A stretch of 64,000 bases of DNA from an uncultured Chloroflexia bacterium (GCA_963741325.1 CAVUHJ010000002.1:59373-123372), one strand, 5' to 3'; shown: positions 5,555 to 37,484, counted from the first letter of the stretch. A program made the numbers and translations. Notes: generated by a model not told the origin, from the sequence alone.

Positions 5555-5719
5555 CAGGCCGTCAGCGCACGCCGGCACTGCCCAACACAGCGTGCAACGG
5601 ACGGCTGGAGCTCGGCGCGTTTTTCAAGCAGTTTTCCTGGCACAAAGCTGATTCCGTCACAGCGGTTTGATCCCGTCCCGCCTACCAGCGGGTAACGTAC
5701 ACCGTTATTCATATAAGAT

Positions 5720-8457: not shown

Positions 8458-8562
8458 GGTTGGCTCCTATAACAAAACAGGTCTGCCAGCACTTGATCTT
8501 TAGTGCTCGCGCAAGACCTGTTGAGAGAAAAATTCCCGCCTGCGCGGGTCTCCGGATCATAG

Positions 8563-11910: not shown

Positions 11911-12062
11911 CTCCTCGGTTCTGGATTGGCCTGATTATACTGCCACTTGTCAGGATGCTAATCCTCTATTTTGGATTAATTTTGTATCTATTCCCGGAAA
12001 GACCGACTACGCCGAAACGACACGAATTGCAACGCTTATGCTTGCAGGTTCCCATCGAAAGG

Positions 12063-12145
12063 GAGAGCAAGGCGTATATAATAGGAACGGGGAGACCTAC
12101 GATCATATTTCTGTGGGGACAGCCCGCCTGCGCTGTGCGAACGCC
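12063..12145 (+). promoter_or_regulatory. Conserved promoter/leader module (copy 1 of 2)
   Basis: GAGAGCAAGGCGTATATAATA..GGGGAGAC-N18-GGGGACAG; about 70% identical to 18509-18588; sits upstream of the 12182 gene. Confidence 0.4.
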
Positions 12146-17628: not shown

Positions 17629-17755
17629 AGACAGGGATTATAAGATAGAAATTATGGCATAGCGGACGACTGAAGTAAAAGGCTGTTGCCTGGTGGCGAT
17701 AGAAATGCTCAAGAAAAAGAATAAAATTCATCCCTATGGTGGCTTCGATAATTCA

Positions 17756-18352
17756 CTATTGGACGATCAGGGTAATCTTGAACAGCAGCGAAGGCGCCAT
17801 ACAGGGCGGGACTGAATTCCGGCAGAATGGATTCCCAACCGCGGTCAGTACGGCTTCTCCCAGACCGTCTGCTTCGTAGATCCCCTGGGCTCCGCGGATC
17901 ACCATCACATTTTTTACCCTGCTTAGCACGGCTTGATTATCAATATCTACCGTCCAGTCAAATATATCTGTACCAAGGTTGAGCAGGAAACTCTCGCCGG
18001 GATGAAGGTAGATAGTCTTACCATTATCTTCCCGAGTAATATCATTGGTTGAGGCGGCGCCTTGAGTTGACCCGTCCTCCGTAGCCGAAATGGTGGGCGG
18101 TAAGAGAATCGCCGGACAGTTGCATATCACGGGAGTACCACCGGCTATTCCTCCCTGAGCTGGCACCGGTGGAAAGACGCCGCTGGGACAGGGACATACA
18201 ACCGAGGAAGTGCCGGTCGCAGTCACTATAGAAACAGGCGTATCACTTATAACAGTAACGGCGGTGGGCGTCTGAGTACCTTGAGATATGACCTGTCCGG
18301 GCGCACAGGCAGTCAAGGTTAAGAGAAACAGTAAGATCAGTGGGGATTTCAT
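17756..18352 (-). CDS. Lipoprotein, function unknown
   Basis: MKSPLILLFLLTLTAC lipobox at internal ATG 18352; Thr/Pro-rich linker then a beta-rich domain. Confidence 0.5.
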   Translation of the reverse strand: MKSPLILLFLLTLTACAPGQVISQGTQTPTAVTVISDTPVSIVTATGTSSVVCPCPSGVFPPVPAQGGIAGGTPVICNCPAILLPPTISATEDGSTQGAASTNDITREDNGKTIYLHPGESFLLNLGTDIFDWTVDIDNQAVLSRVKNVMVIRGAQGIYEADGLGEAVLTAVGNPFCRNSVPPCMAPSLLFKITLIVQ

Positions 18353-18508
18353 CTCTTGGCTCCTTTCGAGGATATTTATAAAGACGTCTTCCTGCCGATT
18401 AGGTTCCAATTGGTGATGGCGTGTGTCTCCGACCAGCGTCCTTGTGCGACCGCCGGTCTCAACTGCCAAAGTCGGAGGCAGTTGGTCCGGCAATAACCCG
18501 TATTCTAA

Positions 18509-18588
18509 GAGAGCAAAGCGTATATAATAACCACAGGGAGACTTAAGGTCACATCTCGGCGGAGACAGAGCGGGAGGTCTGCAAAACC
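18509..18588 (+). promoter_or_regulatory. Conserved promoter/leader module (copy 2 of 2)
   Basis: GAGAGCAAAGCGTATATAATA..AGGGAGAC-N18-GGAGACAG directly upstream of the 18593 ATG. Confidence 0.4.
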
Positions 18589-20060: not shown

Positions 20061-20943
20061 TAGACCTCTTGCAAAAGTAGGCTAGCGTCAGGAAGTGAGT
20101 TCTCTGTTGTAGATCGCCGCGATCAGGTTGAAGCGTAGTGCAAAGCGTTTGCGGCGATTGCGATAGCGCTCACTCAAAATGCGGAAGATTTTCAGTCGAC
20201 GAATGATATTTTCGATCAGAATGCGCTTTTGTGACAACACTCGATTACTGGCTTTCTGTTCCTGACTCAACGGATGCAGTTTGCTTTTCTTGGCAGGTGT
20301 CCGGCTATTGGAATGTAGTTCGGCCAATCCTTGGTACCCGGCATCGGCCAATAGACAGGTCTGTTGGGAGAAGACGCAACGACTGTTCTTGAATAACTGA
20401 AAATCATGGGTGTTGCCGTTCCCAAAGTCCGTAGCCAGGATAACTTCTGTGTTCCAGTCTGCGATTAACTGTGCTTTCTGGGTATGACGCTTCTTTTTGC
20501 CGCTGTAATGCCTGCCTTGTCTTTTTTTGGACGCTCAATCGGCTGTTCGGTGACGTCGACCAACACAATTTCAATCACGGTGTCGCTCGGTGCAAGTGCT
20601 TTTTTGCCCGGTAGGTGAAATTGCTTGGACTGCATGAGCACCTCTTCCACTTTCTTGATTGTGCGACAGACGGTCGCTTCACTGACACCATAGGTCAACC
20701 CAATATGAAATTCAGTACGATATTCGCGCCAGTACATCAAGGTCATCAACAACTGATCGGCTCGACTTAATTTCGGCGGCCTCCCAAAGTCACGCAGCCC
20801 CGCTTCCACCACTTCCAGCATTTTCTCAAAGGTGCAGCGCTGGACCCCCGTGGACCTTTTGAAATCCTCTTCTTTCAGACCTTGTACGCTTTCGTATCGC
20901 ATGCGCCTATTATGGCACATCTATCACTTATGCAAGAGGTCTA
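20061..20943 (-). mobile_element. IS5-superfamily insertion sequence (883 bp)
   Basis: Terminal inverted repeats TAGACCTCTTGCAAAAGT / TAGACCTCTTGCATAAGT; TA at both junctions; encodes an HTH plus DDE transposase. Confidence 0.8.
20088..20920 (-). CDS. Transposase in two overlapping frames joined at a CCAAAAAAAG slippery run (about 20522)
   Basis: orfA ..ERPKK then the -1 frame ..KRQGRHYSGKKKRHTQKAQLIADW..LLADAGYQGL..ERYRNRRKRF; the second frame opens 2 codons before the A7G run. Confidence 0.75.
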
Positions 20944-21181: not shown

Positions 21182-21440
21182 CCCCTCTGATTGTGATCTT
21201 GCTTCGCATCCTATTGGAGAGGGGAGTTCTGTTTCATCCCGTTTTAGTCAAATTGATCCGAGAATGGCTTTTGATGCAGAAGAGCCGCCTCGTTCGGTTT
21301 GGTTAGCTTGGCTGGCTTCGTTCGCCTCGCTACGGACGCGCCTCATGCCGAGCAAAACGCTCGGCATCTTCAACCTTGGCGAGTACGATATCGTCATCAT
21401 GCGGTCGATGGGTGGGAGGCACATACGTGTAGCGGATCGC
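21182..21440 (-). pseudogene. Remnant of the 3' end and downstream flank of a lysK-like gene (outermost copy)
   Basis: 21199-21300 aligns by eye at about 75% with 29836-29940 (GCTTCGC.TCC..TGGAGAGG.GAG..CTGTTTCATCCC..CCGAGAAT.GC..AGAGC.CGCCTCGTTC). Confidence 0.45.
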
Positions 21441-21653
21441 CCCGTTGGGGCAGCCATCTACGCATTTCTTGCAGCCCTTGCACGCCTCCGCATGATCGAC
21501 GCGCGCATGACGATGATTGAAAAAGATTATTTTCCCAAGAACGCCGTTTGGGCATGACTCCACACATTTCCAGCAGGCCTGACATTTGCTGCGGTTGAGT
21601 TCAATGTACTTCGTGGTTGTGTGACTCCGTGAGTGCGAGCGTGCGTGTCGCAT
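21330..21653 (-). CDS. Small 2x[4Fe-4S] ferredoxin-like protein; its C-terminal about 30 codons run into the lysK-like remnant
   Basis: CQACWKCVESCP and CKGCKKCVDGCP cluster motifs; start taken at MRHARSH. Confidence 0.55.
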   Translation of the reverse strand: MRHARSHSRSHTTTKYIELNRSKCQACWKCVESCPNGVLGKIIFFNHRHARVDHAEACKGCKKCVDGCPNGAIRYTYVPPTHRPHDDDIVLAKVEDAERFARHEARP

Positions 21654-21733
21654 GGCTTTGGCCGTTCCTTTCCTTCGTTGACCTGACAGTCTGCCATCGG
21701 CGCAATCGCACCTCTCGCAGAGGTCCGTAGAGG

Positions 21734-21988
21734 TCACACCTGACTCTTGATCAGGCGCGTTAATTGACTCCATATCCAGGGGAGATGCAGGTACAAATGT
21801 ACACCAAGGGTGAGGCACATTGCAACCCCCGCGATCCCGTGGATCCGATGATACATAAACTGGATATGGGTGGCATCCCGCGCAGCAGTGTGCTCCATGA
21901 TTGCGGAGAAAACAACCATCCCCAGGAGTGCAAAAAGGAGAAAGTCTATCATCAGATGTGTTCGGGGCTTCACACCCTTAATCATCAT
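21734..21988 (-). CDS. Small membrane protein (DUF4405-like, His-containing TM helices)
   Basis: MMIKGVKPRTHLMIDFLLFALLG..; ATGA overlap with the upstream TetR stop. Confidence 0.45.
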   Translation of the reverse strand: MMIKGVKPRTHLMIDFLLFALLGMVVFSAIMEHTAARDATHIQFMYHRIHGIAGVAMCLTLGVHLYLHLPWIWSQLTRLIKSQV

Positions 21989-22600
21989 CGGGCCTTCCTT
22001 TTTGATCGGGATTCGCCGGCTTCCATGAATCCGGCACAAAAGAGCTCTTTCATTGCATGGTACAACTCTGCATCTGATAATCCGAAGGACTTCAAGCGTG
22101 GGTTGTCAAAGAGGTTAATAGCCACTTCCAGGAATACGGCTTTAACTAGTGGTCGGTTCAGCCCGGGCCGCAGCCGTGCCTTGCGATCTGTGGCGGCAAA
22201 AAGATGCTCAAATAAGCCGCTCAGCGTGGCAACCCGCACCTCCTGGACCGAACTGTAAACATCGGGGTAGAGGCGCTTCAACTCATCCATTCGAGCAAAC
22301 GCGTCGTCTGCGTGGCAGGGCGCTTAAGCCCTCCCCAATTTGATTCAAGATCTTCTCCCCATCTTCATGCGGGTTATGTTTCAGGTCCGCCAGGCCTTTT
22401 TCAAACACCTGCTCTACACGGAGGAACGTTTCGCGAACCAACCCCTTTTTATCTTCGAAGTGGCGATAGACGGTGACGCGCGTCACGCCCGCACGGTAGG
22501 CAACTTCATTTAGACTGGTCTTGGCGATCCCTCTCTCCGAGAACAACGCCAGCGTAGAGAGCAGGATCTTTTCACTGGTCTGGTCTTCGGGTTTGTTCAT
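21985..22600 (-). CDS. TetR/AcrR-family transcriptional regulator; frame broken near 22300
   Basis: ..ILLSTLALFSERGIAKTSLNEVAYRAGVTRVTVYRHF.. HTH; the C-terminal ligand domain is in the next frame. Confidence 0.8.
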
Positions 22601-22606
22601 GTTACA

Positions 22607-22635
22607 ATAGTATCATATTTTGTATCATCTGTCAA
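22607..22635 (-). promoter_or_regulatory. Sigma-70-like promoter placed for a leaderless TetR mRNA
   Basis: TTGACA-17 nt-TACTAT, then 6 nt to the ATG; the spacer holds GATAC direct repeats (GATGATACAAAATATGATAC). Confidence 0.45.
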
Positions 22636-22759
22636 ATCTGGGGCGCACGAACCTACAAACCACGTATGTTGAAGGCTCTCCCCAACCTGCCTGTGGATAA
22701 AACAGAACAGGCGTGCTACAATTTACGATTAACTACTCACCCCCCGTTGCTCGATTCCC

Positions 22760-22809
22760 CGGAAAATGAATATGGGCAGGGGAGAACACCCGCCCATATT
22801 CATTTTCCG
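22760..22809. repeat. 18-bp perfect-stem hairpin
   Basis: CGGAAAATGAATATGGGC-14 nt-GCCCATATTCATTTTCCG, intergenic. Confidence 0.8.
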
Positions 22810-22931
22810 AAGGTGCAGGTGTACTCCTTGCGCGGGATCTCTTTTCCCATTCCGTGATAACGGAAGGGGAAAAGCTAAAGGTACGTGAGTAGATACATTT
22901 ACGAATTATTTTTTACCGTTAGGAGTCACCC

Positions 22932-23483
22932 ATGGACAAAACCACACGCACCCATCTCGATAACCTTTGGTCTCAAGATAGAGAACTGCAGAACAAAGCC
23001 TTTACCTATATTCTAAAAGTCACGGACAAGCCGGTGGACTGGGCTTACGAGGCCTGGGACGAGCTTCTGCAGAGGCTGAGCAGCAAAGACAACCACGACC
23101 GCGCCATTGCGGCTCAGGTTCTCTGTAACCTTGCCAAAAGCGACCCGAAGAATCGGATGTTAAAGGATTTCAAAGCCCTGCTCGTGGTAACAAAGGATGA
23201 GAGGTTCGTCACCGCGCGGCATTGTATGCAGGCGCTGTGGAAAGTCGGCGTGGCAGGGATACATCAGCGACAGACATATCTGGATGGACTGGAACATCGC
23301 TTCAACGAGTGCATCGCGGAGAAGAACTGCACGCTCATCCGCTACGACATTCTGCGGAGCTTTCGGAATGTGTTTGATGAGGTGAAGGACGAGAAAATAA
23401 GGGCGAAGGCGCTTGAATTGATTCAAACCGAGGACGATCTGAAGTATCGCAAGAAATATACAACGCTGTGGAAAATGCAATAG
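22932..23483 (+). CDS. Hypothetical helical-repeat (HEAT-like) protein
   Basis: Intact 183 aa; RBS AGGAG upstream; no motif I can name. Confidence 0.4.
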   Translation: MDKTTRTHLDNLWSQDRELQNKAFTYILKVTDKPVDWAYEAWDELLQRLSSKDNHDRAIAAQVLCNLAKSDPKNRMLKDFKALLVVTKDERFVTARHCMQALWKVGVAGIHQRQTYLDGLEHRFNECIAEKNCTLIRYDILRSFRNVFDEVKDEKIRAKALELIQTEDDLKYRKKYTTLWKMQ

Positions 23484-23500
23484 GGAATGAGAAACCCAAA

Positions 23501-24728
23501 TCATTGACCGGTACGAGCGAGTACTGCTGTTATAGGCCAAATTATTTTATACGAATCCGGAAAAACTCCACTCTCGGCTCCAGCCGATAACTGTCGAAGG
23601 CGTTCAGTTTGTTCTGGTGAACTTGGGACATCAGGAAATAGCGCATGGGTAGTTGTGCCGGCAATATATGCGTCACTGTTACCAGTAAATTCAGTATATG
23701 GTACAAAGGCAAGAAAAGCCGTAAACCCGTCTTGATCCTTTGAGCTACCAGAACTCATCATCGCCGGATCAAGGTTATTTTAATATCGACTGTGCAGGAT
23801 TCGATGTAGTAATTACTTGAGCCGTGTCAACTGCAGAAAGAAACTGGGCATATTTTGTCGAAGATTGCGTTTGACCTACCGATACTGGCATTTCTGAAGG
23901 TTGTTGGACGAATGTAAAAAAGACAGATATACCGTCATAATCGGTCAACTGATAAAAATATGGAACGGACCGAATCGGGAGTTTAGATAAGAGTATAGAT
24001 GTCTCCGTTGGCGTAAGCATATCGCCCTTGGGATATAGTGCGTTAACCGCACTAACAACCGGAATATCGGTCAGCGTCCAAAGTATCGTTGGATCCGCTC
24101 CTTGAAAAAGCGTATCTAAATAACTATCAGGTAATTCATACGGTCTCCAAGCCGTTGCGATATCAGTCTCCGTTGATTTTAAGTCCCATCGCCAGAGGAT
24201 TATCGGTCAGTTCTTCCTTCGGATCCACTTTATGTCGCCGGATGTTTTGTCTATATCCCATGCGGCAGCATGGAGCACTGGATCGGTCGATCCGTACGGA
24301 AGTACGGCCGAAACGTCTGACGAGGAGAATCTCCACTGTTCACCACTCTGCAATGTGATTTGGAATTCTCCGTTGGGAAGCAAAACCAGATTATCCGTCA
24401 GATGCTGCCCGCCCTGATCAATATAATAATTGCCCGTTGTTGCATCTTTGATAAGGCCCAACTGTATTTGTCTAAGATTAGTATTCAATTTATCAACAAT
24501 TGCCTGCATCTGCTGTCCGGATATCGGCTGTACTGCCGGCGTAGGCGTCGCCGAAGGGATTTCGGTTGGTGAGGGCGTGGGCGAGGCAGCAGCTGCAGTT
24601 TGGGTTAGCAGCTCGGAAGCTGCCTGAGCCACAGCCGTCGCTATGTTATCCACCTTCGGCGAAGCCGGCCCCGTGGCGCAGGCAGCAAGGAAGATTACGA
24701 AAGCGATCATACAATAAATAGATTTCAT
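23501..24728 (-). CDS. Lipoprotein of about 400 aa; frame broken at least 3 times; lower-GC 3' half
   Basis: MKSIYCMIAFVIFLAAC lipobox; ORFs 24207-24764, about 23775-24175 and 23501-23761 continue each other across frame shifts. Confidence 0.45.
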
Positions 24729-24889
24729 TTCGCCTCCCAATGGGTGGTCATCGGAATTATACAACCCCCGATTGGCGCGCCTCGTTCGGTCAGCGCCGCC
24801 TGGCCCGGAGCTTTGATAAATTCAACATGATTTCATTGTATACTATCGAAAGCAACTTGTTTTGATGGCCTTCCACTTGACAATGTGTT

Positions 24890-27409
24890 TTGACCTATTA
24901 TGCGATGATGTCAACAGCAAAATCGAAGCCTTCTCTCCACAATTTACCCGCACGCTTGAGCACTTTTGTGGGGCGGGACCACGAGATCGCCGAAGTCAAA
25001 AGGCAGCTCTCGACCCAACGCTTGCTGACGCTCACGGGCCCCGGTGGTGCTGGTAAGACTCGTCTGGCCTTACAGGTAGCCGCTGGATTGTTGGCAGAGT
25101 TCGAAGATGGCGTGTGGTTCGCCGAACTCGCGTCTCTTGCCGACCCCGTGTTCGTGCCGCAGGCCCTGGCCTCCATTGTGGGTGTTTCTGAACAGCCGGG
25201 GCGTGCCTTGATTGGCGCGCTCACGGATCATTTTTTACATCTCCATTCCCTGGTTCTGCTCGACAACTGCGAGCATCTCATCGGCGCATGTGCGCAGCTC
25301 GCAGACACGCTTTTGAAAGCGTGTCCCGATTTATGGATTCTAGCCACAAGTCGCGAAATATTAGATATCCCGGGCGAAGCGGTTTTTGTCGTCCCGCCTC
25401 TTTCGCTGCCAAAACCTCAGCCTCGGCGGAATCCTGCAAGCGGCCCAGACGCTGTGCCGGCCTATGACGGATCTGAAGCGGTTCGTCTCTTTGTGGAACG
25501 GGCGGCGATCGTTTCGCCCTCCTTTGAGCTCACCGCCGACAATGGCATATGGGTGGCGGAAATTTGCCATCGTTTGGATGGCATGCCGCTCGCCATCGAA
25601 TTGGCGGCCGCGCGTGTGCGGGCTCTATCGGTGCAGCAGATTGCCGGGTATCTCGATGACCGGTTCCACCTCCTCACTGGCGGGAGTCGCACTGCGCCGC
25701 CTAGGCACCAGACGTTGGCGGCCGCACTGGATTGGAGTTATGCGCTGCTCTCGGAAGTGGAACAAAAAGTTCTGCATCGCCTATCGGTTTTTGCGGGCGG
25801 CTGGATGTTGGAAGCTGCTGAAGCCGTTTGCGCGGGCGATGGGGTCGAGGCGGCTGAAGTGTTGGATGCGTTGTCGCATCTCATCGACAAATCCCTGGTC
25901 GTGGCCGACAGGCACGACGATGAGATCCGGTATCACCTTTTGGAAACCATTCGCCAGTATGGACGCGAGAAGCTCGTGCAGGCGGGTGAGGGCGATGGGA
26001 TACGAGATAAGCACCTGAGCTACTATCTCCAATGGGCCGAGAAAGCCAGGGAGTACCTTGGCCGGCCAGAGCAATTTGCCTGGATAAACCGTTTTGAGGC
26101 CGAGCACGATAATATACGAGCCGCGCTCGAATGGAGCCTGGTCAGAGGCGACGGAGCGCTTGAAGTAATGCGGCTGACCTCTGCCACCAGCGATTTCTGG
26201 CAGCTGCGCGGCTATCTCACCGAAGGGCGAATGTGGCTTTCGGCCGCGCTTGCACATAAAGGAGCGCAGCAAAGCACCCTTACTCGTGCTCAAGCTCTCT
26301 ACCATACCAGCATGCTTGCTTTCTATCAGAGCGATTACGCGGTGGTGCGGACGTTGGCTGAGCAGAGTCTGGCGATCTCGAGGGACCTGGGCGCTGCCGG
26401 TCGGTGGGGAGTCGCCAATGCTTTGGAGATGCTGGCGGAAGTTGCTACTGAAACAGGTGATTATTCCGCGGCCCCCGCGCTGTATGAGCAAGCCCTGGCC
26501 ATATTCAAAGAATTAGAGGATTGGGCTGGCGTCGCAGTTGTGCTTAAGATGCTGGGCTGGGGGGCGATGCGCACCGGCGATTATGAGCAGGCACAATCGC
26601 GATTCGAGCAAGCTCTGGTTGCCTGCCGCCAGTCCGGGGATTTGCACCAAATCATCTCGGCCCTGGCCGGTTTGGGAGAGTTGGCGATACGCCGCGGCCA
26701 GTATGACCGGGCCGGCGACTTGCTCAGAGAGAGTCTGGAGAGCAGCCGGCGTTCGGGTGAAAAATGGAGCATTGCCATTGCGCTCGGCTCACTGGGGTGG
26801 GCGGCCTTGCTTCAAGGCGATTTCAAGGAAATGAGGAGATTGCTGGGTGAAAGCCTGAATGTCCGCATGCAAACCAGCGATAGAGGCGGCATTGCCTGGT
26901 GTTTGGAAAAACTCGCGGAAGCGGATAACCTGCAATCTCGCTTTCGGCCCGCCGCGATTATTTTTGGAGCGGCCTCTGCCTTGCGCTCCTCGGTGGGGTC
27001 CGTTATGGATGCCGCGGATCGGCCGGCTTATGAGCGTACGATTTCCATAATTCGAACGAACCTCGGCGAAGAGACGTTCACGGCAGCCTGGGAGGAGGGC
27101 CGCGCGTTGACGGTGGAGGTAGCCGTTGATTATGCTTTATCCGAACCGGTACTGCCCGCTGCTCAATCAGCGCAGGCGGTGAAGGAAGAATTCGGCGGGC
27201 TGACCAGGCGTGAGCGCGAAGTGGCGGTGCTGATTGCCCAGGGCAATTCCAATCGCGAGATCGCCCGCGCCATGACCGTCGGCGTGAAGACCGTCGAAAC
27301 ATATGTGACGCGCATGCTCGGTAAACTCGGGTTTAACTCGCGCGTGCAGATAGCCACCTGGACGATTCAGAAGGGGCTCATTGAAAGGAGTCAAAATGAA
27401 CCAGGCTGA
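24890..27409 (+). CDS. Large LuxR-family regulator (P-loop STAND ATPase + TPR + C-terminal LuxR HTH)
   Basis: Intact 839 aa; FVGRDHEIAEV..LTGPGGAGKTRLA; TPR-like repeats; ..LTRREREVAVLIAQGNSNREIA.. Confidence 0.75.
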   Translation: MTYYAMMSTAKSKPSLHNLPARLSTFVGRDHEIAEVKRQLSTQRLLTLTGPGGAGKTRLALQVAAGLLAEFEDGVWFAELASLADPVFVPQALASIVGVSEQPGRALIGALTDHFLHLHSLVLLDNCEHLIGACAQLADTLLKACPDLWILATSREILDIPGEAVFVVPPLSLPKPQPRRNPASGPDAVPAYDGSEAVRLFVERAAIVSPSFELTADNGIWVAEICHRLDGMPLAIELAAARVRALSVQQIAGYLDDRFHLLTGGSRTAPPRHQTLAAALDWSYALLSEVEQKVLHRLSVFAGGWMLEAAEAVCAGDGVEAAEVLDALSHLIDKSLVVADRHDDEIRYHLLETIRQYGREKLVQAGEGDGIRDKHLSYYLQWAEKAREYLGRPEQFAWINRFEAEHDNIRAALEWSLVRGDGALEVMRLTSATSDFWQLRGYLTEGRMWLSAALAHKGAQQSTLTRAQALYHTSMLAFYQSDYAVVRTLAEQSLAISRDLGAAGRWGVANALEMLAEVATETGDYSAAPALYEQALAIFKELEDWAGVAVVLKMLGWGAMRTGDYEQAQSRFEQALVACRQSGDLHQIISALAGLGELAIRRGQYDRAGDLLRESLESSRRSGEKWSIAIALGSLGWAALLQGDFKEMRRLLGESLNVRMQTSDRGGIAWCLEKLAEADNLQSRFRPAAIIFGAASALRSSVGSVMDAADRPAYERTISIIRTNLGEETFTAAWEEGRALTVEVAVDYALSEPVLPAAQSAQAVKEEFGGLTRREREVAVLIAQGNSNREIARAMTVGVKTVETYVTRMLGKLGFNSRVQIATWTIQKGLIERSQNEPG

Positions 27410-27884
27410 ACGCAGCGCAAAGATCGAAGAGTACGGACGCGGATTCGATTTGTTTACCGCCGCACTGGCCGAGCTCCCGCGTGAGGCCTGGGAGTTCAGG
27501 CCCGCGCCTGGCGAGTGGAGCGTCCATGAAGTCATTGTACACATGGCAGATAGTGAGTCTATCGGCGCGTTGCGCGTCCGTACATTGATTGCCGAACCGG
27601 GCAGTACCCTGATGCCGTATGATGAGGCCAAATGGGCCGAGGCGCTCAACTACCTGAACCAGAACGCGGACGACGCCCTGCAAAGCTTCAGACTGACGCG
27701 GCAGACGACCTATCGCCTGCTTCAGAATTTGCCGGACCCGGTATTCACCCATTCGGTGATCCACCCCGTGTTCGATGAACCTTATACGTTCGATCAATGG
27801 CTCGGCATTTACACGGCTCATGTGCCCGAGCATGTGGGACAATTAAAGAATAACTATCGGGCATGGAAAGAACAAAAGAAGTAA
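27396..27884 (+). CDS. DinB-family (DinB_2) four-helix-bundle protein
   Basis: ..WSVHEVIVHMADSE.. and ..YTAHVPEHVGQL.. His triad pattern. Confidence 0.65.
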   Translation: MNQAERSAKIEEYGRGFDLFTAALAELPREAWEFRPAPGEWSVHEVIVHMADSESIGALRVRTLIAEPGSTLMPYDEAKWAEALNYLNQNADDALQSFRLTRQTTYRLLQNLPDPVFTHSVIHPVFDEPYTFDQWLGIYTAHVPEHVGQLKNNYRAWKEQKK

Positions 27885-27948
27885 TTCCTTCTCTTCCGCA
27901 TCCGGAAAAAACAACCAAAGCATCTCAAATAATCATTCCGAGGACAGC

Positions 27949-27978
27949 AAGCCGCGCGAAATAGGCGCGGCTTTTTTT
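27949..27978 (+). terminator. Intrinsic terminator
   Basis: AAGCCGCGC-gaaatag-GCGCGGCTT followed by TTTTTT. Confidence 0.7.
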
Positions 27979-28009
27979 GCGTGACATCGGAAACAGTGCC
28001 TCAGGAAAA

Positions 28010-28055
28010 TGTAGGGGGTATGCAACGTGCATTTGTAGTGTTTTCCCTGACGACA
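28010..28055 (+). promoter_or_regulatory. Shared upstream module, copy a
   Basis: TGTAGGGGGTATGCAACGTGCATTTGTAGTGTTTTCCCTGACGACA; the last 24 nt are identical at 28521-28544. Confidence 0.4.
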
Positions 28056-28129
28056 GGCGGCGGCTAAGGACGTAAGATGTGTCCAACATTCGGCCGGGCT
28101 TTCCGGCAAACAAAAAGGAGAAAAAACTC

Positions 28130-28342
28130 ATGTCCGCCATCCGTGCCACAATCATGTCCCTAGTATTGGTACTCGTTGTTACTGCAGCCGTCTACTTCGC
28201 CGCGGTTCCACTGCCTGCGATGGCTGCGAAGCCTGCTGCGAGCTGCCCAGTGCCAGGCGTCAGCGCTTTCTCGCTCAGCAATGAGGCTTTGTGGAATATC
28301 CTGAACGGGCGCTATCAGCGCCGCATCGACCTGCCCCGCTAA
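28130..28342 (+). CDS. Small secreted or membrane-anchored protein (70 aa)
   Basis: AAAAGGAG RBS; MSAIRATIMSLVLVLVVTAAVYFAAVPLPAMAA signal-like N-terminus. Confidence 0.4.
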   Translation: MSAIRATIMSLVLVLVVTAAVYFAAVPLPAMAAKPAASCPVPGVSAFSLSNEALWNILNGRYQRRIDLPR

Positions 28343-28422
28343 ACCAAGTTTGCAGGCCCCAAATCTGGACGTTCGTGCTTAAGAGATGCTTTCACGGTTT
28401 CTCCTCCAAAAAGCACACGTCA

Positions 28423-28458
28423 GCCCGCACCAGAGATGCTCTGGTGCGGGCCTTTTAT
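28423..28458 (+). terminator. Intrinsic terminator
   Basis: GCCCGCACCAG-agatgct-CTGGTGCGGGC then CTTTTAT. Confidence 0.6.
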
Positions 28459-28499
28459 ATCTTGTACAGCAGATGGAATGAAGAACCCCCATGGAATAT

Positions 28500-28544
28500 T
28501 GTAGGGGTGTGTGCGGGGCGATTGTAGTGTTTTCCCTGACGACA
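28500..28544 (+). promoter_or_regulatory. Shared upstream module, copy b
   Basis: TGTAGGGGTGTGTGCGGGGCGATTGTAGTGTTTTCCCTGACGACA, 115 nt upstream of the 28660 ATG. Confidence 0.4.
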
Positions 28545-28659
28545 TTTGGCCGCAGAACGCGTAAATTAGAGCTAAGTCCTTGCGGCGAAGGCAATTTCAA
28601 GCAAGCGTCACCATTGAGATGTAAGACACAGCATCTATCCCTGAAAGGAGAACTTTCAA

Positions 28660-28911
28660 ATGCCACTCTTTTTGGATATTCACCAGCATGTGCCCGGATT
28701 GACGGCTGAAGCCGTTGCCGGGGCTCATGAGAAAGACCTTCAAGCCCAGTCTAAACACGGCGTGAAATACTTGAAATACTGGTTCGATGAAAGCACCGGT
28801 AAAGTCTTTTGTCTGGCGGAGGCTCCGAGTAAAGAGGCGGCCGCAGCAGTCCATCGCGAGGCGCACGGTCTTCTCGCCGATGAGATTATCGAAGTGCAGG
28901 AAGGCGCCTAA
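28660..28911 (+). CDS. DUF4242-family small protein (SCO4226-like ferredoxin fold)
   Basis: MPLFLDIHQHVPGLTAEAVAGAHEKDL..YLKYWFDE..GKVFCL..ADEI pattern; RBS AAAGGAG. Confidence 0.55.
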   Translation: MPLFLDIHQHVPGLTAEAVAGAHEKDLQAQSKHGVKYLKYWFDESTGKVFCLAEAPSKEAAAAVHREAHGLLADEIIEVQEGA

Positions 28912-29204
28912 GATCTCGTGCCGAACTTGCCCCAGCCATCCGCCGCTGGCTGGGGCAAGCAACAAGCCGCATCACTTTTTGGGGGAGAAAAATACCAAAC
29001 CGTCCTTTATGACGTAGTTTTAACACACAGCGGAAGGGGAAAACCACCGCTTTTTCTTTTAGCGAAACGAACGCCAGGAGAAGCCTTGGCGAAAGCGTCC
29101 AAGAATAGACCTCGTCCCCGGTCGTCTTCGGCGCGCCTCGCGGCCCTCTGATTGTGACCCTGCTTGGCATCCAAAGTAAGCAGTAACTCCATAATAACGC
29201 CAAT

Positions 29205-29735
29205 CTATGACAACTCAGTTTCTATAAACTTCCTAATTCTCTCATCTGTAAGTTCAACAACAACATTTGGCACACGCTTTCTAAATAATCTTGTCAGTTC
29301 AACATAAAGCCACTCTGCATCCTCCCAAAGAGTTGGCTCATCTGCCCTATAAATGTCAATAACTTCTTTAAAAAAGCGCCAATAACTAAACAAGGTGGAT
29401 GAATAATAAACATAAACTAGTTGCTTATCCAAGATTCTTTTACGGAGAAGAAATCCTATAATTTCATAATGATCTAAGAAGAAGGTTGCATATGCGATAA
29501 ATTGGTTTTGGTCTTTCCTGTTTAATTGCCCCTCAATTTTCTTCTTGACGATTTTTGCAAACCTCAAGCGCCGATCCAGAAACTCATCGCTGCTGAATTC
29601 ACCTGAGTACTTCATCAGAGTATCAATACCTCGACCGATTGCTGCCCGTCTCGCCTCTATCCAAATCGCTATAATCGCGACAAATGCAGCAAGTACAGTC
29701 GCCCAAGCACCAATGGCGCCATAATCAATTTCCAT
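29205..29735 (-). CDS. Hypothetical N-terminally membrane-anchored protein in a low-GC (about 37%) patch
   Basis: Intact 176 aa; one TM (GAWATVLAAFVAIIAIWI) then a Lys/Phe/Tyr-rich helical domain. Confidence 0.45.
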   Translation of the reverse strand: MEIDYGAIGAWATVLAAFVAIIAIWIEARRAAIGRGIDTLMKYSGEFSSDEFLDRRLRFAKIVKKKIEGQLNRKDQNQFIAYATFFLDHYEIIGFLLRKRILDKQLVYVYYSSTLFSYWRFFKEVIDIYRADEPTLWEDAEWLYVELTRLFRKRVPNVVVELTDERIRKFIETELS

Positions 29736-29804
29736 TTTACACTCCCTATTTTATGATTTGACAATTTCATATTACACCCACCTTGCTCAAATCGTCCACC
29801 CCCT

Positions 29805-30150
29805 TCCCTCTGAGAGCGATTCTGGAAGAGATACCGCTTCGCGTCCAACTGGAGAGGCGAGCCTGTTTCATCCCATTTGAGGCGCTAATCGCAACCGAGA
29901 ATAGCGCTTAAGGCAGCAGAGCTCGCCTCGTTCTGTCAGCTTTGCTTGCTCCAACCACAAGCAACGAAATATGTTCATCGGGGCTATGGTCGAGGGCGGG
30001 ATCAACCCGGGCCGTAAACCACCGCGGGGCACTTACATACTGGTGCGACGATGTTCAAGTCGGCATTCCCGGATTTATAAACGAAGCCGGGCTTTCCACC
30101 CGCCGAGCGGGGCCAACCAGCAAATGCATAAACAGCAGCAGTATAACGGT
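29805..30150 (-). pseudogene. 5'-truncated copy of the lysK 3' end with its own stop and downstream flank (middle copy)
   Basis: Encodes ..[38 protein letters not shown].. versus authentic ..[38 protein letters not shown]..; about 80% nt identity by eye over about 150 nt. Confidence 0.65.
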
Positions 30151-30162
30151 GATAATAGTACC

Positions 30163-30191
30163 TTGACAGACATAGTACTTTGTTGTATATT
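30163..30191 (+). promoter_or_regulatory. Sigma-70-like promoter placed for a leaderless PadR mRNA
   Basis: TTGACA-17 nt-TATATT, then 6 nt to the ATG at 30198. Confidence 0.45.
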
Positions 30192-30197
30192 GTACCT

Positions 30198-30539
30198 ATG
30201 GATAAGTCAATGCCCCCCAACAAGATCTCTTCCGACCTGCTGCGTGGCCATACCGATACGATGATTTTACGGCTCTTATCTGAAGCGGATCGTTATGGCT
30301 ACGAAATCGTCAAGCTGATTGCCGAGTGCTCGGGCGGCGAGTATGAATTAAAGGAAGCCACCATGTACTCCTGCGTCCGGCGGCTTGAGGCGGACGGTGA
30401 TATCGAGTGGTACTGGGGCGATGAATCGCAGGGCGGACGGCGTAAGTATTTTCGGATTACCAAAAAAGGTAGGGCCACTTACGCCAGCAACAAAGGCAAT
30501 TGGGAGTATGCAAAGCGCGTGCTCGATAAATTATTGTAA
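30198..30539 (+). CDS. PadR-family transcriptional regulator
   Basis: ..[39 protein letters not shown].. winged helix. Confidence 0.8.
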
Positions 30540-30553
30540 GGAGATGTGATGGT

Positions 30554-31420
30554 ATGAACGAGAAATTAAACCAATATTTGAACGGCGTTTTTGCGCCTTA
30601 CGATGGAGTAAAAAGCGTCGCCGAACTAAAGGCTGACCTGCTCTCCGATTTACAGGAGCGGTTCAATGAACTCAAAGCCGAAGGCAAGGACGATGAAACC
30701 GCTTTTGAGATGACCATTGACAGCATTGGCGACATCGAACAAACGGTACAGGAGGTTGCTAACCTCTCCCGCTCGCTGGAGCGACAGTTGTTGATCAACT
30801 TCAGCGCGAGCGACTTGCCAAAGAGCGACTTCGCGGGCGTTACCGCACATAAAGGAAAATTTGAAGCCAGCGCGCTGCGCGGCTCCGACTTTTCGGGCGC
30901 GGACTTGACCGGCAGCTCGTTTAAGGCCAGCGATGTGCGCGAAGTCAATTTTGACGGTGCAAATCTGACAGACTGCAACTTTTACGCTCTTGACCTTACG
31001 GATGCGAGCTTCAACAAAACCATTCTTGTACGCACCGAATTCAGCACGTCAGATCTGACCCGGGCAAAATTCACCGATATAAAACTGATCGACGTAAAGC
31101 TGACCATGACCGACCTTAGAAAGACGATCTTTGAAAACTGCATCTTTAACGGCGTGGACTTTAAACAATGTGACCTGCGAGGGATGTACCTGGACGGACT
31201 GACCTTTATTGGCGTCAAGTTTGGCGATGCGGCGCTGAGCGAAATTACGTTTAAGGGTGCGACACTTAAAAATGTGTCCTTTACACCGCCGTTTTCTCTG
31301 ACCAAGAAATACTACAATGCCATCAAGACCATTAGGTTTGAGGGCGCGACGATGGATAAGCTGACCTACGCCTCGCTCAAAGGCCTGGGAGCCGATTTGT
31401 CAAAGGTTACCGTTATCTAA
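30554..31420 (+). CDS. Pentapeptide-repeat protein with a DUF1700-like N-terminal helical domain
   Basis: Intact 288 aa; long run of A(D/N)LxG-type pentapeptides (..FSGADLTGSSFKASDVREVNFDGANLTDCNF..). Confidence 0.7.
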   Translation: MNEKLNQYLNGVFAPYDGVKSVAELKADLLSDLQERFNELKAEGKDDETAFEMTIDSIGDIEQTVQEVANLSRSLERQLLINFSASDLPKSDFAGVTAHKGKFEASALRGSDFSGADLTGSSFKASDVREVNFDGANLTDCNFYALDLTDASFNKTILVRTEFSTSDLTRAKFTDIKLIDVKLTMTDLRKTIFENCIFNGVDFKQCDLRGMYLDGLTFIGVKFGDAALSEITFKGATLKNVSFTPPFSLTKKYYNAIKTIRFEGATMDKLTYASLKGLGADLSKVTVI

Positions 31421-31429
31421 GGATTAACA

Positions 31430-32195
31430 ATGATGCAAAACTTATCAATTCAAAGTAAAGGACTGCAAAAGTCCTACCAGCAGCTTCATGTTCTAAAGGG
31501 CGTGGATTTCGAGGTGGAAAAAGGCAGTATTTTCGCCCTGCTCGGCTCCAACGGCGCGGGCAAGACAACGATTATCAAAATCCTCTCCACGCTGCTGAAA
31601 CCGGACGGCGGGACCGCCTTCGTAAACGGATTCGAGGTTGTGTCAAAGGACGACGATGTGCGGCAGTCGATCAGCCTGACCGGGCAATTCGCCGCCGTAG
31701 ATGAGATTTTGACCGGTCGGGAAAATCTGGTCATGATTGCCAGGCTGCGGCACCTCCATGATCCGCGTCAGGTTGCCGACGATTTGCTGAAACGCTTCGG
31801 CCTGACCGATGCCGCCGACCGCAGGGTGTCCACTTATTCGGGCGGTATGCGCCGCAGGCTCGACATCGCCATGAGCCTTGTCGGGAAACCGCAGGTCATT
31901 TTCCTCGACGAGCCGACCAACGGGCTTGACCCCGAGGCGCGCATCGAGGTTTGGAAGACTGTCAAAGAGCTTGCTAATAACGGCACGACGGTATTCCTGA
32001 CCACGCAGTATTTGGACGAGGCCGAGCAGCTTGCCGATCAGAATTGCCATTCTGCATGAGGGCAGGATTATCGCCAACGGCACACTCGCGGAGCTGAAAA
32101 AACTGTTCCCGCCTGCAAAGGTGGAATATATTGAAAAACAGCCGACATTGGAGGAGATATTCCTCGCAATCATCGGCAAAAAGGAGGAAAAGTAA
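31430..32195 (+). CDS. ABC transporter ATP-binding protein (DrrA/ABC-2 type); frame broken near 32040
   Basis: GSNGAGKTT, YSGGMRRRL, IFLDEPTNGLD; the C-terminus ..RIAILHEGRIIANGTLAELKK.. is recovered in the next frame. Confidence 0.8.
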
Positions 32196-32963
32196 ATGGA
32201 AACGATAAAGAAACACTTTTTCAGCGATATGGGCGTGATGCTTGGACGTTCCATGCGCCATATTTTCCGCAGCATGGACACCATCATCACGGTCACCATC
32301 ACGCCGATCGCGATGATGCTGCTGTTCGTCTATGTGTTAGGCGGCGCAATCCAAACCGGTACGGATAACTATGTGAATTACCTGCTGCCCGGCATCCTGC
32401 TGATTGCGATTGCAAGCGGCATCGCCTATACGGCTTACCGTCTGTTTATGGATATGCAAAGCGGCATCTTCGAACGGTTCCACTCCATGCCGATTGCGCG
32501 TTCCACCGTGCTGTGGGGGCACGTGCTGACCTCGCTGGTATCCAACGCGATTTCGGTTGTCGTCATCATTCTCGTAGCGCTCATTATGGGCTTCCGCTCG
32601 TCGGCAGGGGTACTGTCATGGCTTGCCGTAGCCGGTATCCTCGCGCTGTTTACGCTGGCCCTGACATGGATCGCGGCGATTGCCGGACTGTCCGCAAAAT
32701 CGGTGGACGGTGCAGGCGCCTTTGCCTATCCGATTATCTTCCTGCCCTTTATCAGCTCGGCGTTCGTGCCGACCGCATCGATGCCGCCGGTCGTTCGCGC
32801 CTTTGCCGAAAACCAGCCGGTGACCTCGATCGTGGACGCCATCCGTGCGTTGTTGTCAAGCCAGCCGGTTGGTAATGATATATGGATTGCTCTTGCGTGG
32901 TGTGTCGGGATTATGCTCGTGGCTTATATCTTTGCGATGAGGGCGTATAAAAAGCGGGTGTAA
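32196..32963 (+). CDS. ABC-2 type transporter permease
   Basis: Intact 255 aa, 6 TM; its ATG abuts the ATPase stop (TAAATG). Confidence 0.75.
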   Translation: METIKKHFFSDMGVMLGRSMRHIFRSMDTIITVTITPIAMMLLFVYVLGGAIQTGTDNYVNYLLPGILLIAIASGIAYTAYRLFMDMQSGIFERFHSMPIARSTVLWGHVLTSLVSNAISVVVIILVALIMGFRSSAGVLSWLAVAGILALFTLALTWIAAIAGLSAKSVDGAGAFAYPIIFLPFISSAFVPTASMPPVVRAFAENQPVTSIVDAIRALLSSQPVGNDIWIALAWCVGIMLVAYIFAMRAYKKRV

Positions 32964-34137
32964 AGAAAGAACAATTTTTTCTATATTGAACATCAGTGAA
33001 GGCTGCTGCATCGGCTCTACAGGGATCACAGTAGAAACAGTGGAAACAGCAGCCGAAATGCAGTCAATTGCTCCAACATTTGAGATCGAATCATCTGGCC
33101 GAGCCAGCCTCAGCGCTTCCGCCAGCACCGCAACAGCTTTCTCGTATTCTTCCAGTGAAATATGTTCATCGGGCGTATGGTCGAGAGCGGAATCGCCGGG
33201 GCCGTAAACCACCGCGGGGCACTTCCATACCGGCGCGACCAGGTTCAAGTCGGCGGTGCCGGACTTATACACGAAGCTGGGCGTCCCACCTTCTGAGCGA
33301 ATGGCGCTGAGCAGGGCGCGCACCAGCGGCGTATTCTTCTCACAGGCCCAGGCAGGGACGGCATAGCCGCGCCGTTCTACTACTCGCACCGGCCGCGATC
33401 TCGCTCAACTTGGTATACCAATCCTCCGGCGATACATCCAGAGGCAAACGGGTGCCGATGTGCAGCTTTGCCCATTGCTCGAAGCCGTCCGCACCGGACT
33501 CGAGGCCTCGCAGCGTGGGCAGGATCTTATCAAAGGCCCGGGGTTTATTCCCATTGAATGAATCCGCGTAGGCTTTGACCGCCAGCCACAATTCAACTGC
33601 GTCCTCGCAAGCCGTCTGCTCGCCGCTGGAGGAATGGGCCTGCGCGCGCTTGACCGACAACCTGCGCCCAGGCGCTGCCTTTATACCCAAGCGAGATCCT
33701 GTCCCAGCGGTTGGGTTCACCCACGATGGCAAGGTCCGGCTTGTAGCGTGAAACCACATAACGCGCCCCATCCGAATCACGTTCTTCTTCCACCGCACCG
33801 ATCACGACCATCTGCCACCCGCCACCAAGCCGACTTGCGCGACCGCATCTACAAAACACGCCAGCGGGCCTTTGGCATCCACGGAGCCGCGACCATACAG
33901 GTTCCCCTCTTCCACGCGGACAGGGATCTCTCCCGGCACCGTGTCTATGTGCCCGAGCAATACGATCTGCCTGGGGCCCGTTCCCATCAGGCCCACTGCG
34001 TTACCGGCTTCATCCACAAATGCATCCGAGTAATGCAGCGCCTTCATGCGCTCCACCAGCCAGTCAGCCGCATCGCGCTCGCTCCCCGAAGGACTGAAGT
34101 GCTCCACGAGGCCGGTCAGCGTGGCGGCATCATTCAT
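32856..34137 (-). CDS. lysK: [LysW]-lysine hydrolase / acetyl-ornithine deacetylase family (M20); frame broken at least 3 times; the last about 45 codons look like read-through
   Basis: [67 protein letters not shown]; operon position after lysJ (8-nt overlap). Confidence 0.75.
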
Positions 34138-35318
34138 CTTTGAGGTCCGTGCTGAGCACATCGCGCAGCGTGTCCACGAGATGGTCGAGCTGTTCATAGG
34201 TAATGACCAGCGGCGGCAGGAGGCGGATCACCGTCAGACCGGCGTTCAAGGCCAGGATATGCCGCGCCTGCAGTTCTTTGATATACGGTTGAACCTTTTG
34301 TTTCAGCTCGATGCCGACCATCAATCCCAAGCCCGCGCACTTCGCGGATCAGCGGCGAGTTGATCTCGGATAATTTGTCCATGAGGTAGGCGCCTTTTTC
34401 GGCGGCCTGGCCGGGCAGGTCCTCTTCTTCGATGACTTCCAGGGCAGCCACCGCCGCGGCGCAGGAAAGCGGGTTGCCGCCGAAGGTGGACCCATGCACA
34501 CCCGGGACGAGGTTCTTGATCTTCGGGCCGATCAAGACCGCACCGATGGGCACCCCGCCCGCCAGCGACTTGGCGCAGCACAGCATGTCCGGCGTAACGC
34601 CGGTATGCTGCACCGCAAACAATTTCCCGGTGCGGCCAAACCCGCTCTGGACTTCATCCACGATCAGCAGCGCCTCATGCGCATCACAGATGCGGCGGGC
34701 CGCCTCGATATACGCTTTATCCGCCGGGTACACTCCGCCTTCGCCCTGCACCACTTCGACGATAAACGCGGCGGTCTCATCGGTAACGGCCTTCTCCAGC
34801 GCGGCGATATTGTTATACGGCACGTGGCTGAAGCCGGGGACAAGCGGCTCGAAGCCTTCACGATATTTTTTGTTATAGGTGGCCGAAAGCGAACCCAGCG
34901 TGCGACCGTGGAAGGCGCGCATGGTCGCAACGATACCGGCGCGCCCGGTGGAGATGCGCGCAAATTTGATGGCAGCTTCGATCAACTCGGTGCCGGAGTT
35001 GCAGAAGAAGACCCGGTCCAGCCCCGGCACGAGCGTCCCCATTTTTTGGACTAGCGCCGCGCGTTTATCATTGTAAAAACTCTCGAACAGGGTGACCAGC
35101 CTAGTGGCCTGTTCCGCCAGCGCGGCAGCTACCTTGGGATGCGCATGTCCCAGGTTCGCCACGCCGTGCCCGGAATTACAATCCAGGTATTCGACCCCGT
35201 CAATATCCCACAGCAAGGCTCCCTGCCCGCGCACGAAGATGATGGGCTGCTTGGTATACAGCCCCGAGGCGAAGTGCGACTCGGCCTCGATGATTTCAGT
35301 TGCCGTTAAAGTTTTCAT
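34130..35318 (-). CDS. lysJ: [LysW]-aminoadipate semialdehyde / acetylornithine aminotransferase; frame broken near 34325
   Basis: Class III PLP transaminase motifs (..[27 protein letters not shown]..). Confidence 0.8.
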
Positions 35319-37428: not shown

Positions 37429-37484
37429 GCTGAACTCCTTGGTCTTGCTGAGTTTAGGTAAACCGTAGCGGCGAGAGGATGCCG

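Follow-up and report, generated by a model that had tools for sequence, protein, structure and literature searches.

Behind lysK, the last gene of a lysine operon in an uncultured Chloroflexia bacterium, lie about 12 kb of mixed genes, with sequence resembling the end of lysK among them. What process put this DNA there? The stretch analysed here, called the window, is 64,000 nucleotides (nt) long (GCA_963741325.1 CAVUHJ010000002.1:59373-123372; coordinates are 1-based in the window). A sequence-only reading of it described three staggered copies of the lysK 3′ end (21182-33330) and saw in them the footprint of repeated integration at the end of the gene. On closer analysis this picture changes: besides lysK itself there is one lysK fragment, A′, at 29.9 kb, and an unrelated repeat, B, that occurs twice. 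The window was compared with about 175 related loci (labelled L###), and the comparison shows that foreign DNA has repeatedly entered at the end of the lys operon in this clade. The reading favoured here, which is given about an even chance of being correct, is that a gene-exchange hotspot lies downstream of lysK, where recombination with its anchor in the lys operon and an imprecise join on the distal side has added one layer after another (sequential displacement).

A lysK fragment from a second allele

The lysK gene encodes [LysW]-lysine hydrolase, a member of the M20 family (Pfam Peptidase_M20), and is the final gene of the lys operon (33091..34137, minus strand). In a BLASTN comparison against the 64-kb window, lysK positions 33157-33299 matched 29966-30109 with 84% identity over 144 nt (E 3.8e-39). 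A profile of the LysK C-terminus (155 homologues, final 110 residues of each) had matches in the window to lysK (5e-54) and to this fragment (7e-19 and 2e-3) and to no other place; the fragment is matched in two frames because of a 1-nt insertion at 30003. A′ (29962..30113, minus strand) is an internal piece of lysK that spans approximately codons 281-331. The profile match stops at position 89 of 109, at ...DEHISL, and when the lysK genes of about 160 relatives were compared by BLASTN their homology to the region likewise ended at 29962. A′ lacks the final 20 or so codons and the stop. The earlier description of a 5′-truncated copy at 29805-30150 was right about the presence of a lysK fragment, but not about the lysK stop and downstream flank that were thought to accompany it. 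Together, 33157-33299 and 29966-30109 make one direct-repeat pair around an ABC transporter module, with A′ ending 20 codons short of the gene end, and they share identical runs of 26 and 17 nt inside a strongly conserved coding stretch.

A′ is 82–86% identical to the lysK genes of the window, L080, L169 and L156, and is about equally distant from each of them. It differs from the window lysK at three first, two second and 13 third codon positions (third positions accounting for 13 of 18 differences), while the lysK orthologue controls gave 1/0/11 and 1/1/13 for positions 1/2/3. The same bias is found in the relatives described below, where stub and lysK of the same genome differ at 4/1/11 sites in L177 and at 7/3/16 sites in L169. 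Differences concentrated in third positions indicate that the stubs descend from functional alleles and not from decaying local duplicates. By this measure A′ is a fragment of a different functional lysK allele, two alleles having been brought together by gene transfer or recombination. Traces of later decay are also visible, as a few changes at invariant residues (e.g., W to C in A′) and small insertions or deletions (indels).

lysK stubs in related genomes

The closest public relatives of the window genome are metagenome-assembled genomes of uncultured Anaerolineae/Chloroflexota. Several related loci carry a 5′-truncated 3′ stub of lysK on the same strand as the gene and just downstream of it (L169-173, L177 and L060), and there is a stub in L167 too; none was seen in about 160 other loci. 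In L169-173 (LysK 91% identical), which are short-read (Illumina) contigs from five separate samples, lysK is followed by an opposite-strand plsY-like gene and then by a stub (11884-12027) that has a TGA of its own and a deletion of 2 nt. L177 (88%) has an opposite-strand open reading frame (ORF) of 129 aa in this place, and its stub (5452-5599) includes the stop and about 27 nt of flank. The distant L060 (60%) shows the order lysK, opposite-strand 509-aa gene, decayed lysK fragment. In L167, a stub of residues 297-346 occupies the position where L080 has the whole of lysK, with an AbiEi-like gene before it and PHP/ATPase defence-like genes, B and the ABC module after it. Projected onto window coordinates, the 5′ limits of the stubs fall at 33305 (A′), 33254, 33240 and 33220, a spread of up to 85 nt. 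The stub of L177 is more similar to the lysK of L080 (90%) and of the window (88.5%) than to its own (87%).

Immediately before the stub, L169 and L177 share an element, J, of 73-90 nt (89% identical, z = 33), and the cargo next to lysK differs between them. The regions containing J lie at 11797-12027 in L169 and 5363-5599 in L177; J opens a short ORF on the opposite strand, M(S/C)VSAWQ..GMLRE.QLLGL, and it has the appearance of an older cargo gene's 5′ end. The window has no J, and the similarity of J to B is not significant (z ≤ 2.3). The plsY-like gene was considered as a common neighbour of lysK and was found only in the L169-173 lineage, and the L060 cargo gene proved not to be homologous to the L178 neighbour. 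Genes of defence type adjoin the stubs, comprising an AbiEii/AbiEi toxin-antitoxin pair and a PHP-domain plus ATPase set (L167 1-5026; L169 12065-13461), and in L167 a perfect palindrome lies between AbiEi and the stub.

No recombinase domain was found in the approximately 50 window ORFs scanned (the sequence-only reading had likewise noted no integrase), and no recombinase was present among the called genes within 10 kb of lysK or stub in L080, L167, L169-173, L175, L177 and L178; the rest of each genome lay outside this search.

The repeat at 29.9 and 21.2 kb is not derived from lysK

A′ is directly adjoined by B2 with a C-type end, C2a (29800..29958, minus strand; nhmmer 1.9e-41). An intact B/C unit, B3C3, is found at 21183..21322 (minus strand; nhmmer 3e-36), starting 8 nt after the stop of a ferredoxin gene, and a partial 3′ end of the unit, C2b, at 29144..29172 (minus strand). 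These had been taken for the stop-proximal part of lysK with its flank. The recurrence itself is well supported: 29836-29948 and 21201-21310 are 76% identical over 114 nt (E 1e-14), B2 (29826-29958) against B3 (21192-21319) gives z = 28.7 in 1000 dinucleotide shuffles, and the short piece reported near 29146-29178 is present as well, 29144-29172 matching 21183-21211 with 90% identity over 29 nt (E 4e-5). The similarity to lysK is not. Comparison of B2 and B3 with the lysK tail and flank of the window, L080, L156, L081 and L082 gave z scores of -1.2 to +1.4, which is noise level (-0.3 for B2 against the lysK tail), and a direct alignment of lysK to the 21.2-kb segment was also at noise level. 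Significant similarity to lysK, a check proposed at the outset, is seen for A′ at 29.9 kb but not for the 21.2-kb segment (z about 0 to -1). The adjoining coding stretch to about 21440, thought to be weakly lysK-like, fares no better: the ferredoxin tail THRPHDDDIVLAKVEDAERFARHE resembles an M20-like tail by eye, but the LysK profile has no match there at E < 10.

These shuffle tests against five lysK tails, with the LysK C-terminal profile, rule out that B is a diverged lysK tail plus flank, and on the alignments B is a separate non-coding repeat that does not derive from lysK. The 12 kb are not a single tract bounded by lysK copies, since the far repeat B3 is not lysK and the 2.8 kb nearest to lysK form a separate module. 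For annotation, the repeat that had appeared to unite the tract is not a lysK copy but a non-coding element of its own.

The B/C unit is about 140 nt long and closes with the C motif GGAYGCSAAGC ... ATCACAATCAGAGGG. Two further members of the B family were found, L080 2529-2608 (z = 12 against B2) and L167 4907-4953, making four members in three genomes. Both lie downstream of lysK (of the stub in L167), on the lysK strand, and the permease end of the ABC module is about 100-150 nt away. In the L080 copy there is a strong terminator-like hairpin, with a T-run after it on the strand of the ABC operon (z = -4.2 and -5.1). B was not found in the roughly 170-175 loci other than the window, L080 and L167. 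It shows no coding conservation and no conserved fold or covariation (fold z scores of B2/B3: +0.7, +0.7, -2.0 and -0.5). An origin as a known RNA was rejected, since neither the gathering threshold nor a limit of E ≤ 10 gave an Rfam match and no structure is conserved. An integron attC site was rejected too: an R′ box with GTT occurs only in B2 (GTTGGAC; ATAGGAT in B3, TTTGGAG in L080), and no attC-type hairpin or integron integrase was found. B looks like a piece of the ancestral intergenic region downstream of lysK in this clade; its position downstream of lysK or stub and on the same strand in L080 and L167 is taken in favour of this origin.

Relative to the intact copy at 21.2 kb, the B/C unit at 29.9 kb is interrupted by a low-GC insert (29173..29835, minus strand; 674 nt, GC 0.40 versus 0.54), which carries an ORF with a DUF4760 domain (29205-29735; Pfam 1.2e-12) and separates C2b from the rest of the unit. 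Imperfect direct repeats of 11 nt flank the insert, GGACGCGAAGC (29846-29836) and GGATGCCAAGC (29172-29162). When it is excised in silico the unit aligns to B3C3, with the rest of the C motif following GGATGCCAAGC. From its limits and composition the DUF4760 stretch is a small, clean insertion of foreign DNA. The ORF matched nothing in the defence-system or NCBIfam libraries.

The PadR-ABC module

Between A′ and lysK, the plus strand carries genes for a PadR regulator, a pentapeptide-repeat protein, an ABC ATPase (frameshifted at 32043) and an ABC-2/DrrB-like permease (30151..32967; Pfam, NCBIfam). Both ends of this 2.8-kb module are sharp: it begins some 10 nt before its own -35 box and reaches 4-30 nt past the permease stop. 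The permease has more than 120 homologues at 91–96% aa identity in Firmicutes and Chloroflexi, named sources being Desulfosporosinus, Paenibacillus, Ruminiclostridium, Syntrophomonadaceae and Chloroflexia. At the nucleotide level, the module is 90% identical to copies in L161-164, where it lies between PFK and SIS genes, 83% to those in L165/166 in an SLH/GH18 neighbourhood, 85.5% to that downstream of lysK in L080, and 92% to that downstream of the lysK stub in L167. No terminal repeats were found on it, no recombinase lies beside it in any context examined, and no lysK-like sequence adjoins it in the genomes where it sits away from lysK. Judged by this distribution, the PadR-ABC block is a discrete, widely transferred module and not a private insertion. 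Being nearly identical across phyla, it is perhaps a widely spread efflux or resistance-type unit. An extra 25-30 nt at the PadR side (30118/30128-30150) is common to the window, L080 and L167 only, which indicates that these three copies have a common local history.

A variable interval between lysK and a lipoprotein gene

The lys operon is collinear with and 80–96% identical to that of relatives as far as the lysK stop, and the DNA downstream is unrelated in each. It differs in every close relative (L080, L081, L082, L156, L169, L175, L177 and L178), which marks the interval between the lys operon and a lipoprotein gene as a variable hotspot. The lipoprotein gene (17756-18493), together with a promoter-like 59-nt repeat (17756..18571, minus strand; 77–80% nt identity to L080, L167 and L168), is the far anchor of the variable region and is common to L080, L167 and L168. 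In L080 the order is lysK, 1.9 kb, ABC module, 0.9 kb, lipoprotein gene, and there is no lysK stub. The window has 11.5 kb between the ABC module and the lipoprotein gene; in L167 GGDEF/TPR genes occupy this position.

The lysK stop and the end of the ABC module are joined in the window by 32968..33090. Of this junction, 32968-32997 matches the 3′ flank of the module in L165, and the remainder matched nothing in comparison with the related loci. Its place in L080 is taken by 1.9 kb containing a CPBP protease gene, a 210-aa ORF, the promoter-like repeat and B.

The 59-nt repeat occurs at 18513-18571 and 12067-12123 in the window and at 2450-2508 and 6544-6596 in L080, and its layout is that of a near-consensus promoter (TTGACC - 17 nt - TATTAT). 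In the window as in L080 the lipoprotein gene has a copy in front of it, and L080 has another immediately before B. Beyond the lipoprotein gene (island of homology 17742-18571), L080, L167 and L168 carry genes for GrpB, PEMT, NTP_transf_2 and an M20 paralogue, and the window has a histidine kinase gene in their place, which indicates that the far side of the hotspot is also rearranged.

Proposed assembly of the region in layers

The repeats with their limits, their occurrence in relatives and the allelic nature of A′ are shown by the comparisons above; from them we infer the following mechanism and order of events. Recombination would be of the homology-facilitated illegitimate type, with the conserved lys operon as anchor. 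Each event would bring in a donor lysK 3′ end and whatever follows it in the donor, and the incoming DNA would be joined to the recipient somewhere downstream of the crossover. A join within the recipient lysK would leave a 5′-truncated stub, while a join further out would truncate older cargo or flank instead. In the window, the youngest layer would be made up of the 3′ end that lysK has now, some 120 nt and the PadR-ABC module; it would meet the prior lysK at codon ~281, and A′ would be the residue of that gene. An older layer would comprise A′-B2 and about 8 kb behind it, joined just before the flank repeat of the recipient, B3C3. The DUF4760 insert, the loss of the A′ tail and an IS5-family insertion (20061-20943) would be separate small events.

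Three properties of the locus are those expected of anchored recombination. A conserved homologous anchor, the lys operon, is found on one side only. Truncated remnants of the anchor gene occur with varying limits (window A′, L169-173, L177, L167 and L060). Remnant and functional copy come from different alleles, as seen in the codon-position bias and in the distances of the L177 stub. Recombination of this kind accounts for the lack of recombinases, for stub limits that vary, for cargo that is ordinary and varied, for ragged leftovers, and for the J-stub that L169 and L177 share in spite of swapped proximal cargo. The leftovers (A′ without its tail, partial C2b, and J) fit imprecise joins better than site-specific ones.

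Several points weigh against this reading. No event has been caught in the act, and donor/recipient pairs are absent. Along lysZ-lysK, profiles of identity to L169, L177 and L175 reveal no clear mosaic breakpoint. A′ requires an additional deletion of its last ~60 nt, and the layer ending at B3 depends solely on B being a former lysK flank, a putative origin. Natural competence of these uncultured Anaerolineae would have to be assumed. The assembly is indel-prone, and the window junctions are provisional. Finally, local duplication with allelic replacement of the functional copy could give the same allelic pattern.

Where leftovers (stubs, truncated cargo and old flank copies) persist, they record the order of arrivals and make the acquisition history readable in organisms that cannot be cultured.

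Alternative explanations

The main rival is integrase-driven. Integrase-dependent elements would target the lysK 3′ end, each supplying a replacement end, and would accrete in tandem; they would now be recombinase-less remnants or cis-mobilisable elements served in trans, with A′ and the stubs as attR sites. This explanation, close to the sequence-only reading, is unlikely. In its favour, small cargo is enclosed by lysK-derived direct repeats in the window, L169, L177 and L060, the functional copy retains a complete 3′ end, and lysK and A′ have the identical runs of 26 and 17 nt in common. The conserved J beside the stubs of L169 and L177 is a possible arm site, and there is a precedent in the same phylum, the ssrA islands of Dehalococcoides (PMC3146451). 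However, 16 of 31 of those islands have an integrase, in contrast to the window and the 10-kb surroundings of lysK in the relatives searched. The shifting stub limits leave no constant crossover core, the repeats are 14–20% diverged with no clean core, and A′ lacks the gene end expected of an attR site. The cargo is ordinary (a plsY-like gene and an efflux module), the ABC module occurs elsewhere without adjoining lysK-like sequence, and J starts a small opposite-strand ORF and so resembles the 5′ end of an older cargo gene. What stands of the proposal of repeated integration with replacement ends is its core, namely that DNA comes in again and again at the lysK 3′ end, brings a new end with it and displaces the old one outward; A′ fits this, and stubs in four other lineages and the third-position bias reinforce it. 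But the window holds one remnant only and the integrase is unsupported.

A more specific form of this idea is doubtful, and more so than the general one. The lysK 3′ end of this Anaerolineae clade would be the attachment site of recombinase-less cassettes of 0.7-3 kb, moved in trans by a putative recombinase, with J or B/C as arm sites; each cassette would carry one opposite-strand gene or operon, and the PadR-ABC module would be one of them.

It is improbable that the lysK end was duplicated locally together with its flank, that deletions followed, and that ordinary homologous recombination later replaced the functional lysK. This course is consistent with the repeats all being direct and on the same strand, and a duplication with two deletions could yield the change in position of B (lysK side of the ABC module in L080 and L167, far side in the window). 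It requires, however, a minimum of four further events, and independent stubs with unrelated cargo in four other lineages are left unexplained, as is the L177 stub, which is closer to the lysK of other species than to its own.

Equally improbable is that B and C are an autonomous small repeat with no connection to the history of lysK, whether an element like miniature inverted-repeat transposable elements or repetitive extragenic palindromes, a terminator module or an integron-type site. The family has four members in three genomes, the L080 copy has its terminator-like hairpin (z = -4.2 and -5.1), and the DUF4760 ORF is bracketed by C-type repeats. Against this, there are only two copies in 64 kb and none in about 170 other loci except L080 and L167, all of them lie downstream of lysK or a stub, neither terminal inverted repeats nor a conserved fold were found, and an attC R′ box GTT, as read from the alignment, occurs in B2 only, with no integron integrase found.

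An assembly artefact in which the contig joins two co-occurring related populations is very improbable: the many single-base indels in conserved window genes are those of a noisy long-read metagenome assembly, but A′ differs from lysK by 16%, far above strain variation, is only 150 nt long amid unique DNA, and has equivalents in independently assembled short-read contigs from five samples and in L177.

Relation to known systems

Each element of this picture has been described before: hotspots beside core genes, replacement of 3′ ends, and orphan 3′ fragments. New are its location at lysK in an uncultured Anaerolineae clade, its repeated occurrence across several lineages, and the layered record.

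Chromosomal hotspots of horizontal gene transfer flanked by core genes were reportedly surveyed by Oliveira et al. in 2017. The lysK-lipoprotein interval is similar to these in its variable content, in its defence and toxin-antitoxin genes (AbiE and PHP-ATPase in L167/L169), insertion sequence and efflux module, and in lacking integrases, as many of them do. Such hotspots are usually attributed to double homologous recombination in both flanks, a process without stubs, whereas the lysK stubs show that an imprecise, one-sided join has occurred often.

Pavlovic et al. reportedly described in 2004 how integrative and conjugative elements and cis-mobilisable elements accrete at the 3′ ends of protein-coding genes, fda of Streptococcus thermophilus being one. 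At fda the element supplies a replacement 3′ end, the old end is orphaned at the far border, and recombinase-less elements sit between att sites, an arrangement that the lysK locus resembles. The fda elements have a defined att core and a cognate tyrosine integrase, neither of which was seen at lysK.

Integron cassettes resemble the B/C arrangement in having short, repeated non-coding units between accessory genes, and one ORF of the window (DUF4760) is bracketed by repeat ends. Unlike integrons, the locus has no IntI, no conserved R″/R′ boxes (RYYYAAC ... GTTRRRY) and no attC-type hairpin, and its cargo is multi-gene, on both strands and equipped with its own promoters.

Sequential displacement with orphaned 3′ regions, i.e., the anchor model, comes from effector-immunity arrays of type VI secretion systems and from Rhs/CDI loci with their C-terminal displacement, for which homology-facilitated illegitimate recombination was proposed (PMC5361080); this type of recombination is also treated in PMC3240628. 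In those arrays (PMC5361080), as at lysK, there is a conserved upstream anchor, DNA enters beside it, and older 3′ pieces are displaced as truncated orphans; growth is stepwise and a dedicated recombinase is absent. The lysK locus differs in that its anchor is a housekeeping biosynthetic gene and not a polymorphic toxin, its orphans are without evident function, its cargo is unrelated, and there are only one or two layers per genome.

For the tandem ssrA islands of Dehalococcoides, whose borders are repeats of the 3′ end of ssrA, accretion has been discussed, and not all of them have integration modules (PMC3146451). Like the lysK locus these islands are found in the same phylum, lie downstream of a single-copy essential gene, and in some cases have no integration genes; the lysK-A′ pair resembles the direct repeats that border them. 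Those repeats have a fixed length of 20 bp and mark a single insertion point, and a serine integrase module is present in half of the islands; the lysK repeats, in contrast, are 120-175 nt long with varying starts and 14–20% divergence, and no integrase was seen. Integrase-free hotspots can, it appears, leave behind scars resembling att sites.

The lys operon and the quality of the contig

Upstream of lysK, the minus strand carries lysJ (about 34194-35318, broken by an indel), lysZ (35315-36136) and lysY (36394-37521) of the LysW-type lysine operon, in the gene order also found in L169 and L175. LysK is marked by an M20 domain, a length of about 347 aa and the last position after lysW-lysX-lysY-lysZ-lysJ, and the window gene, an indel-bearing copy, belongs to this class. 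The product is 91% identical in aa to P0237, named LysW-gamma-L-lysine carboxypeptidase in its source, and both pieces of the window lysK ORF match Pfam Peptidase_M20.

At the nucleotide level, lysK is 88% identical to that of L080, the nearest species-level relative. Compared with the intact L080 gene, single-base indels at about 33821, 33660 and 33382 split it into three frames. Its tail aligns with relatives as far as a TGA at 33093-33091, which is the stop position of L080, L177 and the L169 stub; an indel near 33101 puts this TGA out of frame, and the ORF as sequenced continues to 32856. Single-base indels were noted in lysK (33821/33660/33382/~33101), lysJ (~34280), the ABC ATPase gene (32043), the TetR gene (~22290) and A′ (30003). 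The genes broken by 1-nt differences in the window are intact in relatives. Isolated 1-nt differences from the intact L080 orthologue suggest that the contig is probably from an unpolished, indel-prone long-read assembly, and the frameshifts and 'missing stops' of the window are not to be taken as biology. The window has a single tRNA gene, at 8562.

Accessory genes between the two B/C units

Pfam and library scans identified mixed accessory genes on both strands between the two B/C units (21330..29143), and the gene content listed by the sequence-only reading was recovered, as were PadR-ABC and the low-GC ORF (DUF4760, GC 0.40) outside this interval. The tract includes minus-strand genes for a ferredoxin (4Fe-4S), a weak DUF4405 match and a frameshifted TetR, together with a 183-aa ORF, small ORFs and a lipoprotein gene, LuxR-STAND (24890-27409), DinB (27381-27884) and an SCO4226-like protein (28660-28911). 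These genes are absent from L080 and L167, and comparison of the tract proteins with defence-system models gave nothing specific. Composition is patchy across the tract, as previously described, with GC ranging from 0.40 to 0.61.

On the far side of B3C3, and 240 nt away from it rather than abutting it as had been thought, lies an IS5-family insertion sequence (20061-20943, minus strand) with a split transposase. Its assignment is based on 18-nt terminal inverted repeats (94%), HTH_Tnp_4 plus DDE_Tnp_4/DDE_Tnp_1 domains and a match to NCBIfam transpos_IS5_4. A programmed frameshift or an assembly indel may explain the split, and the AAT present at both flanks is a possible 3-bp target duplication.

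Between the TetR gene and the divergent 183-aa ORF there is a 21-nt inverted repeat (22760-22809; 95% complementary, 8-nt loop), which may be an operator or a terminator.

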